Shown: one piece after another, positions 14,254-29,117 of the stretch
How positions within the stretch are numbered: the stretch's first letter is position 1
Layout of the letters: every line of letters begins with the position of its first letter
Assembly: GCA_029838195.1 (NCBI GenBank)
Contig: JALGVJ010000052.1
Location: 1-44,078 of the forward strand
Source of the DNA: Promethearchaeota archaeon
GTDB taxonomy: Archaea > Asgardarchaeota > Lokiarchaeia > Sigyniarchaeales > SOKP01
DNA length: 44,078 nucleotides
Direction: 5' to 3'
Position numbers and translations under genes: made by a program
Notes under the pieces: generated by a model
What the model was told of the DNA's origin: nothing
Databases searched by the model: none
The model's input: the letters and a program-made list of their open reading frames with translations, nothing else

Positions 14254-15333
14254 TTATTTATGAGGATATGAGCCTAAAATTTTATACCATATAACATTAT
14301 TTTCCATCTCTTTCAAAACTGCTTTAATTTTTTCACTTTCTCTTGAGCCTTCAAAATCCATTAAGAAAATATATTCCCATTTTCCTTTTCTTCTTGGTCT
14401 TGATTCAATTTTAAGTAAATTTATGTTAGCTTCTGCAAATAATTTAATAACACGAAATAAAGCTCCCGGCACGTGCTTTGTCACGAAAACAATGGATGTT
14501 TTAAATTTATCTCCCATGAGCCTTGATTCATTTTTTGATATGATTAAAAATCGCGTGTAATTCGAAGGTTCATCTTCAATATTGGAAGCTAAAATTTTCA
14601 TGTCATATAATTGACTTGCTATCTGAGGACCTATGGCGGCATTAGAACAATCATCCAATTCTTTAACTTTTTGAACAGCTTCAGCTGTAGAATTTACATT
14701 AATTAATTGAGCATTGGGAAAATTAGCTTTTAACCATGAATTTGTCTGAGCGAACGCTTGGGGATGGGAATAAATCGTTTGAATATCGGCTAAATTAGTT
14801 TCTTTTAGAGAAATTAGATTTTGAATTATTCGAAGCTCTATTTCTCCATAAATCAAAAGTTCTTTTTGAATCAGTAAATCTAACGTTTCCCGAACAGTTC
14901 CGTGTAAGCTATTTTCAATGGGAACTACTCCATGGCTTAAAACATTCTTTTCAATATTTTCAAAAATTTCTGAAATCGTTTTAAATGAGAAAAATTCCGT
15001 ATTAGTCATGGGGAAAAAATCTAAGGCTGCTTGGTGAGAAAAAGTACCTTTTGGTCCTAAGAATCCTACTTTATTTTTCATTTCTTGAACTGCTTTACAC
15101 GCCCCCATGATTTCTTTCCAAATTGCCTCAACTTGGGAATCATTTATCCATTTGGATTTACGTTTTAAGCGATCTAAGATTTCAACTTCTCGAGAAGGTT
15201 GAAAAATTTCCAATTTTAATGCGTTTTTAATTTTCCCGATTTCTTTAGCTAATAAAACTCTTTTTTCAATTAAATTTAAAATTCGATCATCAATTTGATT
15301 GATTTCTTCTCTTAATTTTTCAATATCTTTCAT
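14254..15333 (-). CDS. pheA: Bifunctional chorismate mutase/prephenate dehydratase (P-protein)
   Basis: AroQ domain LREEINQID; PDT motifs FLGPKGTFS, VPIENS, SHPQAFAQ and NYTRF; ACT domain PGAL...IESRP. Confidence 0.95.
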   Translation of the reverse strand: MKDIEKLREEINQIDDRILNLIEKRVLLAKEIGKIKNALKLEIFQPSREVEILDRLKRKSKWINDSQVEAIWKEIMGACKAVQEMKNKVGFLGPKGTFSHQAALDFFPMTNTEFFSFKTISEIFENIEKNVLSHGVVPIENSLHGTVRETLDLLIQKELLIYGEIELRIIQNLISLKETNLADIQTIYSHPQAFAQTNSWLKANFPNAQLINVNSTAEAVQKVKELDDCSNAAIGPQIASQLYDMKILASNIEDEPSNYTRFLIISKNESRLMGDKFKTSIVFVTKHVPGALFRVIKLFAEANINLLKIESRPRRKGKWEYIFLMDFEGSRESEKIKAVLKEMENNVIWYKILGSYPHK

Positions 15334-15357
15334 GATACTTAATTTTCAATCATGTTT

Positions 15358-17046
15358 TTACGTGAATTTATTTAAAAATTTTTCAAGTTCAATCTCAAAC
15401 GCTACTACCGGAAATTCTAGTTTAAAATTTAAAAGGATTTCGGGATGTATTTCACCTAATTCTCCAATTTCTTCTCCATTTACTTTAATTTTACCAATTC
15501 GTCCGGAGATGTATGTAGGATTTTCCCCCGCAATAATATCATAGTGATTGTGATACCCTAAAGAAGTCAAGAGGAAATCGACGGTAGATCTTATTTCAGT
15601 ATAATCTGCATCCTCATGATAAGAAACTGCTGATAAATGAAGTTTTCGACTTGTTCCGGTCTCTTCTTTTGGTTCTAATTCAATAACATCTCCTACTTCA
15701 AAGATCCGAATAGGTTTTTCTTCAGAACGATTATATTGTAAGGTTTCCATTAGTTTTGGTAAGATTTTGGTACGTACCGTATCAAATTCTCTTGAAATAG
15801 GATTTTCTATTTGAATTACATTTTCTGGTTTATACTCTTGCTTCATGAATTCATAATGACGTTGGGAATTAGACAAAATGAAATTCATTACTTCTAGATA
15901 ACCAGCACCAATCATTATTGTTCTTATCTTGTTAGAAAGTCTTTGAGCAAGATGATATTCTCCTATACAACCTTCTCTAATTGTTGTTGGTAAATTGAAA
16001 TATCCATATCCAATAGCACATTCTTCCGTGAAGTCCACTGGATGCATGATATCGCCTCTATATGCGGGAACTAATATTTCGATGTATCCCCTTTTTTTAG
16101 ACCTTTTTGCTTCCATTCTTACTTTTTTAAAGCACTTGATCATTTTGCTTGTTGATAGTTTGATACCAATATAATCGTTAATATAATTTTCTTTTACCTC
16201 CCATTTTTTAGGAGTGAGATCGGGAGTTATTATTTTTTCTCCATCTTCATAATTTACATTTACAGCTTCGATCTTTGCGCCCATATCCGCTAAGGTGGTA
16301 GATAATATGTTTAAGGCCAAATTTATTGCTTTAAAATCGGTACCCGTGATATCTATAAATAGATTTTTTGTATCATCCGTTACCGTGGTCAATTCTCCGT
16401 TTATTATGGGAGGAAAAGATAATACTTCCTTATTTTTATCAAAAATGATAGGATATACTTCTTTTCCTTGAAGGATGTGAGCGTATTCAATACCTTTTTC
16501 ATGCAATAAGAGAATTTCTTCCAAGTTCATGGGATATCCATCTCCGTGTAAAGGAATAAAACTAACAGACTCTGGTTTCACCGCAGTATATCTAAAAGGG
16601 GGGGTTACTTTATCGAAATCATGTACTCCAATGGCCACTTTTTTACGATCCCTTCCTACGGCCCAATGTAGTTGTTCTTGTATGTTCATTAAGGTAGCAA
16701 CCTCCTCCTCATCCAAATCAATGTCTCTAATAATACCACAAACAATAAATGGTCTAACCTTCTCAATAATTTTCTCTGCTGTAAGGATTATTTTTGGAGG
16801 AGCAATTTCATAATTGGGAAGCCCCATTTCTATTTCATAATAGCCCTTGAGAGCTCGGGCAATGCCTTCCGGACTTGAAAAATCGGGTCTATTGGGATTG
16901 TATTCTACCTTAATTGATTGCTCTTCTTCGTCAATATCTTCTAAATCCAAACTGATCCATTGAAGATCATATTCTAAATCTTTAATTTCTAACTTTTTCC
17001 CGACCAATTTTTCTAATCTTTGAATTTTAAGGTCAATTGTAGGCAT
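15358..17046 (-). CDS. pheT: Phenylalanyl-tRNA synthetase beta subunit (archaeal type)
   Basis: MPTI start, NRPD..SPEGIARAL, RKKVAIGVHD, LSFPPIIN and GEIHPE. Confidence 0.97.
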   Translation of the reverse strand: MPTIDLKIQRLEKLVGKKLEIKDLEYDLQWISLDLEDIDEEEQSIKVEYNPNRPDFSSPEGIARALKGYYEIEMGLPNYEIAPPKIILTAEKIIEKVRPFIVCGIIRDIDLDEEEVATLMNIQEQLHWAVGRDRKKVAIGVHDFDKVTPPFRYTAVKPESVSFIPLHGDGYPMNLEEILLLHEKGIEYAHILQGKEVYPIIFDKNKEVLSFPPIINGELTTVTDDTKNLFIDITGTDFKAINLALNILSTTLADMGAKIEAVNVNYEDGEKIITPDLTPKKWEVKENYINDYIGIKLSTSKMIKCFKKVRMEAKRSKKRGYIEILVPAYRGDIMHPVDFTEECAIGYGYFNLPTTIREGCIGEYHLAQRLSNKIRTIMIGAGYLEVMNFILSNSQRHYEFMKQEYKPENVIQIENPISREFDTVRTKILPKLMETLQYNRSEEKPIRIFEVGDVIELEPKEETGTSRKLHLSAVSYHEDADYTEIRSTVDFLLTSLGYHNHYDIIAGENPTYISGRIGKIKVNGEEIGELGEIHPEILLNFKLEFPVVAFEIELEKFLNKFT

Positions 17047-17069
17047 GATTAATTAATTCCTCACGTGTA

Positions 17070-18602
17070 TTAATACGATTGAGTCCTCAACCATTTAATT
17101 GGATTAATATACAAATCTCGGATATCCGACCTCTGATAACGTAGCATTGCTAATCTTTCAAGGCCAAGACCCCAAGCAAGAACGCGAGTAGGGTTTCGTA
17201 TTCCCCATGGATATGTTACTTCAGGTCGAAAGATGCCCGATCCGCCCATTTCCAGCCATTCTCCTAATTTATCGTAATAGACGGCAATTTCCATACTCGG
17301 TTCTGTATAAGGAAAAAATCCTGGGCGAGTAATTATTTTTTCAAACCCCATTTTTCTATAGAATTCAGATAAAATCCCTCTCAAATCGCATAATGTAACA
17401 TTTTCATCAATGACGATACCTTCAATTTGGGTGAATTCCGCTAAGTGTGATTTGTCAACTTTTTCATTTCGAAACACTCTATCAATGGAAAATACTTTTA
17501 TGGGGGTTTTATCATTATTCATGTAATATTGGGCCAACCTTCTTATAGTAGTTGCCGTAGTATGAGTTCTTAATAATGTTTTTTGGGCAATCTCATATTT
17601 CCAATCATACCCCCAGCCTATCGACCCACAATCTCCTCCATTCTCATGGGTTCGCTTCACTGCTTCCACGCGATCTTTTTGAGGTAATTTGGCTATTTTA
17701 GGATTTTTTAAATAAAAAGTATCGTGTAATTCTCTGGCAGGATGATCTTGTGGTTGAAATAACGCATCAAAATTGAAAAAGGCACTTTCAACTAGGGGGC
17801 CTCTTATCTCCGTAAATCCCATGGAAATGAAAATTTCTCTAATTTCATTAATAATGGTAATTAAGGGATGTATTTTTCCTCCTTTTAACAAGGGGCCGGG
17901 TATTGAAACGTCAAAAGGTTTTAATTCCATGTTTTTCCATGACCCCGTTAAAATCATTTCCGAAGTAATCTTGCTTACCTGTTGCAATGTTCCTATTTCT
18001 GAAAGAGAAATGGTTTTTCCTTTTTTAGTAAGATAAATTTCACGCTGGGTCTTTTTTATTTTTTTTAATAATTTTCTCTTATTTAAAATTTCTAAATATT
18101 TCAAATCCTTTTTTGATAAAGTATCAATGTTGAGTACCGGCCTTTTTTTAAATTTATTCAAAAATTGTTCTAATTCAGTCGGAGGAAATTCTTCTTGGAT
18201 TAAAAAAATTTTATTTTTGCCGGACGCCTTGCTTTGGGCTATCCAGCGATTTTTCTTCATGTTAGAGAGACCTACATAAAAAATATTTGGTTCTAATCGT
18301 GATTTTTGTAGTAACTCATCTATAGTGATTTCCTTGAGATTTTCATTTAATAACAGATTTAATAATTGACGCTCCGGTAAACCTTTTTCTAAATAAGATA
18401 ATCCTTCCTCATTAAGGCTAACTTGATGGATCTCGCGTTCTTTAAATCCTCCTAACTTATAGGCAATTAAATCATTAACAGCGGACATTAACACTATATA
18501 ATCAATGTTCAATTCATTGGCTAATTCGGAAGCGATACAATTATCCTTCTTTTCTTGAAGTACCTTTAAAATGTCTTTTACTTGTTTTTTAAGTTTAATC
18601 AT
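17070..18602 (-). CDS. pheS: Phenylalanyl-tRNA synthetase alpha subunit (archaeal/eukaryal type)
   Basis: NFDALFQPQDHPARELHDTF, LRTHTT, RVFRNE, FFPYTEPS and AWGLGLERLAM, with a long N-terminal extension. Confidence 0.97.
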   Translation of the reverse strand: MIKLKKQVKDILKVLQEKKDNCIASELANELNIDYIVLMSAVNDLIAYKLGGFKEREIHQVSLNEEGLSYLEKGLPERQLLNLLLNENLKEITIDELLQKSRLEPNIFYVGLSNMKKNRWIAQSKASGKNKIFLIQEEFPPTELEQFLNKFKKRPVLNIDTLSKKDLKYLEILNKRKLLKKIKKTQREIYLTKKGKTISLSEIGTLQQVSKITSEMILTGSWKNMELKPFDVSIPGPLLKGGKIHPLITIINEIREIFISMGFTEIRGPLVESAFFNFDALFQPQDHPARELHDTFYLKNPKIAKLPQKDRVEAVKRTHENGGDCGSIGWGYDWKYEIAQKTLLRTHTTATTIRRLAQYYMNNDKTPIKVFSIDRVFRNEKVDKSHLAEFTQIEGIVIDENVTLCDLRGILSEFYRKMGFEKIITRPGFFPYTEPSMEIAVYYDKLGEWLEMGGSGIFRPEVTYPWGIRNPTRVLAWGLGLERLAMLRYQRSDIRDLYINPIKWLRTQSY

Positions 18603-18778
18603 GATGTTCCAAATCTAATGATCATGTAAAATTCACTTTATACTTTTTTAAATGATGCAAAAATTTAAATCTTTTCGTTAAAATCTCGAAAAACCGCAAC
18701 GAAAAATATTCTAAATTGATTTAACATGTTCAAAAATTCAAAATATCTTACATGATTTTCATGTTATTAGAATCTAAT

Positions 18779-18849
18779 AAAAAACCCGCAGCCAAGGGAA
18801 TAAATTCTAAAGAGAAATGAGGGTTTATTCCCTTGGCAGATTAAACCCT
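18779..18849 (-). promoter_or_regulatory. Putative attenuator: competing hairpins and U-tract in the pheS leader
   Basis: Perfect 14-bp inverted repeat GCCAAGGGAATAAA (18791-18804)/TTTATTCCCTTGGC (18824-18837). Overlapping alternative 8-bp stem at 18820-18827/18842-18849. T6 run on the minus strand at 18779-18784. Confidence 0.6.
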
Positions 18850-18887
18850 TTAAAAAACTTATTATCGAGAAAAATGAAGGAGCACAT
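18825..18887 (-). CDS. Putative Phe-rich leader peptide (PheM-like), 20 aa MCSFIFLDNKFFKGFNLPRE
   Basis: Read manually. 5 of 20 codons are Phe, including tandem TTT TTT. GGTGA lies just upstream, the stop codon falls inside the 5' arm of the 14-bp stem, and the ORF is co-oriented with pheS. Confidence 0.6.
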   Translation of the reverse strand: MCSFIFLDNKFFKGFNLPRE

Positions 18888-18976
18888 GGTCACCACTTTA
18901 GTCTCATCCACGTAAGCTATCAAATGTAAGGTATGTATTAATTATAAAATCTTAAATAAAAGATTTTTAAAAAATT

Positions 18977-19420
18977 TTATTTAAGTAAAGCTTCTCGAAT
19001 TGAAGTGGAACTAATTTGTTGACTAAATTCATTTTTTATCATGGGAATTACAACAAGAATTAATGGTTTATATCCCTTTTTTTCCCTTATTTCGTTTATT
19101 TTGAGCCCATTAGGATATGTTTCTTGACTTACCACGAGAGCTTCGAATTCTTCTTGATGAATGGGAGGTCCATAAGGATCATGTAATTCTACGATCTCTA
19201 CTTTCTCTAATGCAGAAAGAGAGCTAATATAATCTCTTAAATTTTTCTCCCGAATCGCGTAATCTTCTAATATTTCAACATGTTTTTTATTTTTCAATAA
19301 CTTTTCCGTGGTTAAACCGATTATCAATTTTTTAGAAATAGAAAGAGCAACTTTAATCAAAAACTTATGCCCTTCATGTAAATGGTCAAAGGTCCCTCCA
19401 CATCCCGTTAAATTAAACAT
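18977..19420 (-). CDS. coaD: Phosphopantetheine adenylyltransferase (archaeal/eukaryal type)
   Basis: GGTFDHLHEGH, DPYGP, LVVSQET, INEIR and ISSTSIR. Confidence 0.93.
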   Translation of the reverse strand: MFNLTGCGGTFDHLHEGHKFLIKVALSISKKLIIGLTTEKLLKNKKHVEILEDYAIREKNLRDYISSLSALEKVEIVELHDPYGPPIHQEEFEALVVSQETYPNGLKINEIREKKGYKPLILVVIPMIKNEFSQQISSTSIREALLK

Positions 19421-28001: not shown

Positions 28002-29117
28002 ATGAGTCTTCCTTTAGAGGAGAGAATTTCATTATTAAAAGAAGTAGGAGAAGAAATAATAGAAATAGAAGAATTAGCTGAGATGATTAAATGGAAGGAA
28101 GAGCATGGCCAACCTATTTATGCTTATGATGGATTTGAACCTTCCGGAAACATTCACATCGCCCAAGGGATTTTAAGAGCAATCAACGTTAATAAGCTCA
28201 TAAAAGCAGGGATTAGATTTAAATTCCTAGTAGCAGATTGGCATGCAGCCGCTAATCATAAATTTGGAGGAGATTTACAAGTTATCAAGAAAGTTGGAGA
28301 TTTTTTTATTGAAGTTTGGAAAGTTTGCGGAATGGAGTTGGATAAGGTAGAATTTATTTATGCATCAGATTTAGTTAAAGACCCAAAATATTGGGAATTA
28401 GTATTAAATATTGCCATAAATACATCTTTAAACCGAGTTATAAGATGTACTCAAATCATGGGGCGAAGTGAAACCGATACATTAACAGCCTCACAAATCC
28501 TTTATCCACTCATGCAAGCTGCTGATATTTTTTATCTCCCCGCCGATATTTGTCAACTTGGAATGGATCAGAGAAAAGTCAACATGTTAGCTCGAGAAAT
28601 CGCTAAAAAATTAAATCGCCCTAAACCTATTGCCATCCATCATCACATGCTCATGGGATTAAAAAAACCTCCCATATCAGATTTAACGGGAATGGAGCGA
28701 AGCATTCAATTAAAGATGTCAAAATCTGACCCCGATTCGGCAATTTTCATGTTAGATTCCCCAGCAGACGTGAAGCGCAAGATCAATAAAGCCTATTGCC
28801 CTCCTAAACAAATTGAAGAAAATCCCATTTTAGAATATTGCAAATACATCATCTTTCAAACTAAAAAAACGTTCTTTATTAAACGCCCTGAAAAATATGG
28901 CGGAGACATTGAGTATGAATCATATGAGGATTTAGAAAGAGATTATCGGCAAGGTAAATTGAATCCACCTGATTTAAAACCTGCTGTAATTAAAAGTTTA
29001 AATGAGCTTTTAATTCCTATAAGAACTCATTTTGAGAAAAATAAAAAGGCAAGAGAACTTGCAGAATTTGTTAAAAGAGAATATGAAAAATACATGAAAA
29101 AGAAATCTCCTAATTGA
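28002..29117 (+). CDS. tyrS: Tyrosyl-tRNA synthetase
   Basis: YDGFEPSG, HIAQG (HIGH variant), YPLMQAADIF, GMDQRK and KMSKS. Confidence 0.96.
   Translation: MSLPLEERISLLKEVGEEIIEIEELAEMIKWKEEHGQPIYAYDGFEPSGNIHIAQGILRAINVNKLIKAGIRFKFLVADWHAAANHKFGGDLQVIKKVGDFFIEVWKVCGMELDKVEFIYASDLVKDPKYWELVLNIAINTSLNRVIRCTQIMGRSETDTLTASQILYPLMQAADIFYLPADICQLGMDQRKVNMLAREIAKKLNRPKPIAIHHHMLMGLKKPPISDLTGMERSIQLKMSKSDPDSAIFMLDSPADVKRKINKAYCPPKQIEENPILEYCKYIIFQTKKTFFIKRPEKYGGDIEYESYEDLERDYRQGKLNPPDLKPAVIKSLNELLIPIRTHFEKNKKARELAEFVKREYEKYMKKKSPN

Follow-up and report, generated by a model that had tools for sequence, protein, structure and literature searches.

The window, that is, the whole stretch of 44,078 nt of Promethearchaeota DNA that was analysed, carries on its minus strand, from upstream to downstream, a coaD-like gene, a 374-nt spacer, pheS, pheT, pheA and an RNase PH-type gene. 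Pfam comparisons assigned the coaD-like gene (19420-18977) to the cytidylyltransferase-like proteins and backed the identities of pheS (18602-17070), pheT (17046-15358) and pheA (15333-14254), the last comprising chorismate mutase, prephenate dehydratase and ACT domains, in agreement with the pheS-pheT-pheA operon named in the original prediction. The order of this block (14254..18602) is retained in most relatives. All the spacer features described below are likewise on the minus strand.

The spacer contains a short leader frame (18825..18911) that can be read from a GTG at 18911 (long form, 28 residues) or from an ATG at 18887 (short form, 20 residues) to a TAA stop at 18827-18825. The short form is the frame originally predicted, and its 20 codons (18887-18825), five of them for Phe, are all present. 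The Phe codons nearest to the hairpin described below, at 18857-18852 and 18845-18843 (18843..18857), occupy the consensus positions -7, -6 and -3 before a Pro codon. Judging from the sequence, the true start may be the GTG rather than the ATG: it fits the family better, because it yields a 28-residue product and has a conserved T-rich box 63 nt upstream. A GGTGA word starts at -7 from the ATG, a spacing seen in none of roughly 50 cases of GGTGA before real genes, where it starts at -10 to -15; a short ribosome-binding spacing had been raised as a caveat with the prediction.

The T-rich box, of the form A4-T6-A (18968..18978), overlaps the stop codon of the coaD-like gene and is found in nearly all orthologs. 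We regard it as a candidate TATA-like promoter (P1) of the leader unit; alternatively, it could be the oligo-T terminator of the upstream coaD-like gene. The TATA-like word proposed originally does exist, 62 nt 5' of the ATG at 18887, but its coordinates were one base off (18942..18949 instead of 18941-18948), and it is not conserved in a relative of the same genus (L010).

The frame runs into a perfect 14-bp hairpin (18791..18837; 5' arm 18837-18824, loop 18823-18805, 3' arm 18804-18791), the 5' arm of which contains the stop codon, as had been predicted. Folded alone, the stretch 18842-18785 reaches -21.3 kcal/mol. The hairpin is followed by the word TGCGG(G), of which TGCGG is conserved, and then by a run of six T (18784-18779; whole feature, 18779..18790). 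From this T6, pheS is separated by 177 nt, close to the distance of about 175 nt given at the outset.

Taken by itself, the window is statistically ordinary. In its genome, with 33% GC, about 1070 of 9673 small intergenic frames (ca. 11%) contain at least three Phe in eight codons, and three is the best value for the leader frame; Phe enrichment in the window alone is not beyond chance, and the early warning that Phe codons are common in T-rich DNA is correct at this level. Likewise, the fold of the 191-nt region is not unusual (z = -1.25), and an Rfam scan of the region retrieved only chance-level matches, with no amino-acid leader family, including Phe_leader, at E<=10. What makes the leader significant is the conservation of its frame, Phe codons, stop and hairpin in relatives. 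A search of the own genome for further copies of the element matched only the locus itself, and each relative also contains a single locus, which rules out a genomic repeat or a mobile element.

Elsewhere in the window, a 13-codon frame with four consecutive Cys codons (22081-22040, minus strand) lies 416-455 nt upstream of a gene for an AMP-binding enzyme; it is antisense to another reading frame and is probably due to chance.

Conservation of the leader in one archaeal family

We collected pheS loci from 40 relatives. The spacer upstream of pheS measures ca. 370 nt in nearly every genome of the Promethearchaeota (Loki-type) family to which the window belongs, and the aligned spacers share four conserved blocks. 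These are the T-rich box right after the stop codon of the upstream gene; a purine word resembling a ribosome-binding site, with a start codon; a T-rich stretch leading into a hairpin built on GCCAAGG and its complement; and, 35-75 nt before the ATG of pheS, a BRE/TATA-like motif with a second A/T word.

A covariance model built on the T-rich stretch and the hairpin matched 107 of 135 family genomes, each at a single site and without exception upstream of pheS, with double matches only where the element falls at contig ends; at least one apparent miss is not a true absence, since locus L133 (G067:C1) reads as N at about 80-260 nt before pheS. The model had no match in 19 genomes of three sister families. 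The single locus per genome and the lack of matches in the sister families indicate that the element is neither a repeat nor a generic terminator.

Of 49 distinct orthologs, 43 keep the leader frame open over 26 codons or more, compared with 4 and 1 for the other two frames. The frame, its start spacing, the Phe codons and the stop are kept in about 45 of the 49, from 11 of 12 genera. The start codon is ATG in most of them and a conserved TTG in one genus; in 22 of 45 the length is exactly 29 codons. In 23 of 45, the T-rich box and the leader start are separated by 59-61 nt, a distance that falls in the interval of greatest frequency of TATA-like words ahead of real genes in the own genome.

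Conservation concentrates at the end of the peptide, which reads Gln-Asp/Glu-Ser-Phe-Phe-Phe-x-Phe-Phe-Ile-Leu/Pro-Pro-Arg-Glu-stop, while the N-terminal part is free to vary. In the codon table, Phe occupies positions -8, -7, -6, -4 and -3 in, respectively, 33, 28, 41, 36 and 46 of 47 orthologs. TTT and TTC alternate at these sites (27/14 and 11/25 at two of the positions), with only one or two instances of TTA or TTG, and the stop is kept in 43 of 47 (TAA in 37, TGA in 4 and TAG in 2). The last 15 codons hold 220 Phe codons in the leader frame; the other two frames give 119 and 117. In a genome of this GC content, the alternation of TTT with TTC, and of TAA with TGA and TAG at a site that does not move, points to selection on the translation of Phe codons, beyond mere U-richness.

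The alignment of pheS upstream regions suggested with the original prediction thus revealed a conserved Phe codon cluster. A short upstream frame enriched in the cognate codons of the downstream operon, as in PheM/PheL-type attenuators, is present both in the window and in relatives. The prediction depended on relatives having a Phe-rich upstream frame and covarying stems; the frame was found, and so was some covariation in the hairpin (stem B), but not in stem A.

A Trp-codon frame before trpB2

A scan for runs of one residue covered every small frame ahead of some 2400 long ORFs in the own genome (9673 frames). Exactly one contains four Trp in eight codons, and it lies 177 nt before a TrpB-like gene. 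This frame (contig C38, about 3017-2967, minus strand; L096:1638-1588) has four alternating Trp codons, and the downstream gene (trpB2; C38:2792-1380) encodes a TrpB-like PLP enzyme (NCBIfam, E = 1.5e-193). As with the Phe leader, an Rfam scan of the trpB2 leader gave chance-level matches only.

The Trp frame is also conserved: a frame of 16-18 codons ending in Trp-x-Trp-x-Trp-x-Trp is present in 16 or more of the 24 loci obtained from the family, and shorter Trp-x-Trp frames precede the TrpB-like gene in sister families, including single-contig genomes (family f2). A conserved TATA-like box of its own precedes the Trp frame by about 55-60 nt, and its stop codon lies in the arm of a hairpin of 6 bp in the family and 7-10 bp in family f2. 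The Phe and Trp leaders thus share a promoter-like box, a short frame, a cluster of cognate codons and a stop within a hairpin arm, as well as a spacer of about 170-230 nt to the gene, longer in one sister-family genome. However, their sequences are unrelated, the Trp codons lie inside the hairpin arm, and the Trp leader is spread across the order whereas the Phe leader is limited to one family. Chance is an unlikely source of two cognate pairs built alike within a single genome.

We did not find an anthranilate synthase-type (Chorismate_bind) domain in the own genome, which is 96.6% complete. For this reason, the TrpB-like enzyme may be the only Trp-forming enzyme of this organism, and Trp may be made solely from salvaged indole. 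In loci L103-L126, a long, near-perfect and conserved inverted repeat with a GAATTC-like core occupies part of the spacer that separates the Trp leader from trpB2, about 45-95 nt upstream of the start of the gene; it could be an RNA hairpin or the DNA site of a regulator.

Cognate leaders were also sought before six other synthetase genes (Tyr/Trp, His, Ile/Val/Leu and Met) and before the prephenate dehydrogenase gene, and none was found. The window itself contains a class Ib synthetase gene of the Tyr or Trp type (28110-29012, plus strand), with no cognate leader frame upstream. Other small frames with runs of rarer residues (His, Thr, Met, Val, Arg or Tyr) were discarded because their downstream genes are unrelated.

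Promoter-like motifs, hairpin pairing and alternative readings

The strongest conservation in the spacer corresponds to the BRE/TATA-like motif (18636..18677), situated 3' of the hairpin, with its core (18669-18662) ca. 67 nt before the ATG of pheS and the second A/T word at 18653-18636. Across the genome, this TATA word is most frequent 70-80 nt upstream of start codons. A TATA consensus derived from the own genome by 7-mer enrichment was uninformative because gene starts were called crudely, and the 15 tRNAs found have too few upstream regions to derive one. On sequence grounds, pheS very probably has its own promoter (candidate P2) downstream of the hairpin and, with this motif between hairpin and gene, it could be transcribed without the leader. 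The arrangement of PheM/PheL-type attenuators, a leader in the 5' untranslated region with no intervening promoter, is therefore not what we found, and the simple PheM-type 5' leader originally proposed, which by its own terms was incompatible with a pheS transcription start downstream of 18779, is disfavoured.

Further upstream, the alignment of 49 orthologs shows another conserved block (18702..18725), 35-60 nt upstream of the BRE/TATA-like motif and deleted in genus g6 (L016 and L024). It is possibly a transcription-factor site, in which case dual control of pheS would be implied. An outer inverted repeat around this block was looked for in the same alignment and is not maintained across orthologs.

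The downstream motif raises the question of whether the frame concerns pheS at all. It might belong to a small gene of its own, or to a small RNA, that specifies a hydrophobic micropeptide and ends at the hairpin and U tract, with pheS transcribed from the downstream promoter only and the adjacency of both due to inherited synteny. Such a gene would have its own promoter-like box at canonical spacing, it would be separated from pheS by a conserved promoter-like motif, and small Phe-rich frames are common in this T-rich genome. However, only the Phe cluster and the residues encoded by the stem are conserved, and not the N-terminus; the enriched residue matches the adjoining operon, with the same match for Trp at trpB2; and the unit never appears elsewhere in any genome. 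We consider this explanation unlikely, although the likeliest of the rivals.

The position of the stop codon within the hairpin suggests another possibility, namely, an arrest peptide that senses free phenylalanine, in which the ribosome halted at the stop holds the hairpin open. We masked a 27-nt ribosome footprint at Phe 6, Phe 12, Phe 15 or the stop: the hairpin remained intact at Phe 6 and Phe 12, kept 10 of its 14 pairs at Phe 15 and disappeared only at the stop. Tandem-Phe stalls in the window hence leave the hairpin intact in these folds, while a ribosome held at the stop would abolish it, and the C-terminal residues and the position of the stop are conserved. Ligand-sensing arrest at a stop codon is known from TnaC, which senses Trp, and from the fungal arginine attenuator peptide, which senses Arg; both resemble the Phe leader in having a conserved C-terminal peptide and stop in a frame upstream of an amino-acid-related gene, but they lack clusters of cognate codons. 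These clusters are a hallmark of tRNA-charging sensors and, to our knowledge, clusters of five cognate codons do not occur in arrest peptides. Besides, the conserved Pro-Arg-Glu cannot be separated from the stem sequence, because both are encoded by the same nucleotides, so any selection on the peptide is confounded, and some orthologs have other terminal residues or a displaced stop. Peptide arrest thus appears to us improbable.

The hairpin itself is well supported. Its upper helix, of 11-14 bp, shows 92% of cells paired across 21 orthologs, with a few compensatory changes, including a G-C to C-G change at the base in one genus, and its covariation score exceeds all 500 shuffles, which bears out the predicted stem. 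The model-fitted alignment (A3) was left out of these pair counts because it contains antisense matches. The stem sequence is conserved more than pairing alone demands, as might be expected if the hairpin were a protein-binding RNA operator or the DNA palindrome of a regulator, for instance in synthetase autoregulation, with the frame being incidental; indeed, genus g9 retains the hairpin with a truncated frame. Nevertheless, the loop varies in length from about 13 to 25 nt, which favours an RNA hairpin over a dimeric DNA site, and synonymous variation accompanies the conservation of frame, start spacing and stop. We therefore give little credence to an operator with an incidental frame.

Finally, it is very hard to sustain that the hairpin and T6 merely terminate the coaD-like gene and that the Phe codons are a product of chance in T-rich DNA: the window alone is indeed ordinary, but the leader and hairpin accompany pheS even in genomes that lack coaD or have a divergent upstream gene, failing to travel with the upstream gene as its terminator should, a T6 already exists right after the coaD stop, and the frame is conserved across genera. 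The possibility, contemplated in the original prediction, that the hairpin acts only for coaD is contradicted by the same observation.

Other elements of the predicted switch fared less well. The GCGGG word and U6 tract are present in the window, and the pairing of GGGTTT with AAACCC is possible there; however, no more than 19 of 49 orthologs have a run of at least five T that begins 15 nt or less from the hairpin, and the lower helix that GGGTT (18787-18783) can form with 18842-18838, by which the stem would extend as far as the U tract, is weak, with 66% of cells paired. A bacterial promoter and terminator scan called no terminator at the hairpin-T6, and its promoter matches carry no meaning in an archaeon. 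The RNA polymerase of archaea is known to stop at oligo-T with no need of a hairpin.

As for the antiterminator, the predicted stem A never appeared in the minimum-energy fold, either free or with the footprint masked at the three Phe codons tried or at the stop. In relatives, the upstream-mimic helix homologous to stem A can pair in 78% of cells, with covariation no better than that of shuffles (222/500). We did not find, then, a mutually exclusive antiterminator helix of the kind present in PheM/PheL-type attenuators. In some genera, a long-range pairing of the 5' leader with codons before the Phe cluster is visible by eye; it is absent in the window.

A possible Phe-sensing leader and its relation to known systems

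Considering all the evidence, we favour, with a probability of roughly 60%, that the element is a Phe-sensing regulatory leader peptide arranged in tandem before pheS-pheT-pheA. From the Phe-tRNA-sensing attenuation originally postulated, the conserved Phe leader, the hairpin and the linkage to pheS remain, now accompanied by a Trp twin, whereas stem A, a general U tract and a promoter-free leader do not. A mechanism based on termination is clearly less probable than the general reading as a Phe-sensing leader.

This leader could operate as follows. When charged tRNA-Phe is scarce, the ribosome would park on the Phe codons abutting the hairpin, with its footprint covering the hairpin base. Transcripts initiated at the leader promoter would then cross the spacer into pheS-pheT-pheA, adding to basal transcription from P2, a promoter that an essential synthetase could well be expected to have. 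If Phe abounds, the ribosome would reach the stop and depart, allowing the hairpin to form, joined in the window and in many relatives by the U tract, and the leader transcript would end or be otherwise silenced. This would be a two-state design based on direct occlusion, and not the four-segment switch of bacteria. In the masked folds, a ribosome on the last Phe codon opens the base of the stem, and one at the stop abolishes the hairpin. The result would be a compact sensor, with one hairpin and a stop codon in its arm.

Extending this to the order is an even bet: its Asgard archaea might couple amino-acid supply to expression through ribosome-mediated leaders rich in cognate codons, with Phe for pheS-pheT-pheA and Trp for trpB2. 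Leader-peptide attenuation is a textbook bacterial mechanism, and a full-text literature search retrieved bacterial descriptions only, with no archaeal leader-peptide attenuator. The Phe leader and its Trp twin offer two concrete, testable cases in Asgard archaea, which bear on transcription-translation coupling in this group, on regulated termination in archaea, and on how amino acids were sensed before eukaryotes split both processes. If our reading is true, attenuation-like control, and hence functional coupling of transcription and translation, would exist in the archaeal relatives of eukaryotes.

The closest known counterparts are the E. coli pheM-pheST and pheL-pheA leaders (Phe_leader in Rfam), which also have a short frame with a run of Phe codons immediately before the genes for, respectively, Phe-tRNA synthetase and prephenate dehydratase, followed by a hairpin and a U tract, the latter also found here in the window. 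In contrast, the element described here is from an archaeal host, has no Rfam match and no supported antiterminator, and carries its stop inside the hairpin arm; it also possesses its own promoter-like box and a second promoter-like motif before pheS, and its U tract is not universal. The Asgard Phe leader is thus akin to the enterobacterial PheM/PheL attenuators in the way it would work, yet it is not a member of those families, as indicated by the lack of a model match, the lack of an antiterminator and the different layout. Its two-state logic recalls instead the attenuation of E. coli pyrBI, where the ribosome translating the leader directly blocks the terminator hairpin. In both, a ribosome beside or on the 5' arm would prevent the hairpin from forming, although pyrBI is bacterial and its signal is UTP-dependent pausing of the polymerase, whereas that of the Asgard leader would be stalling at cognate codons.
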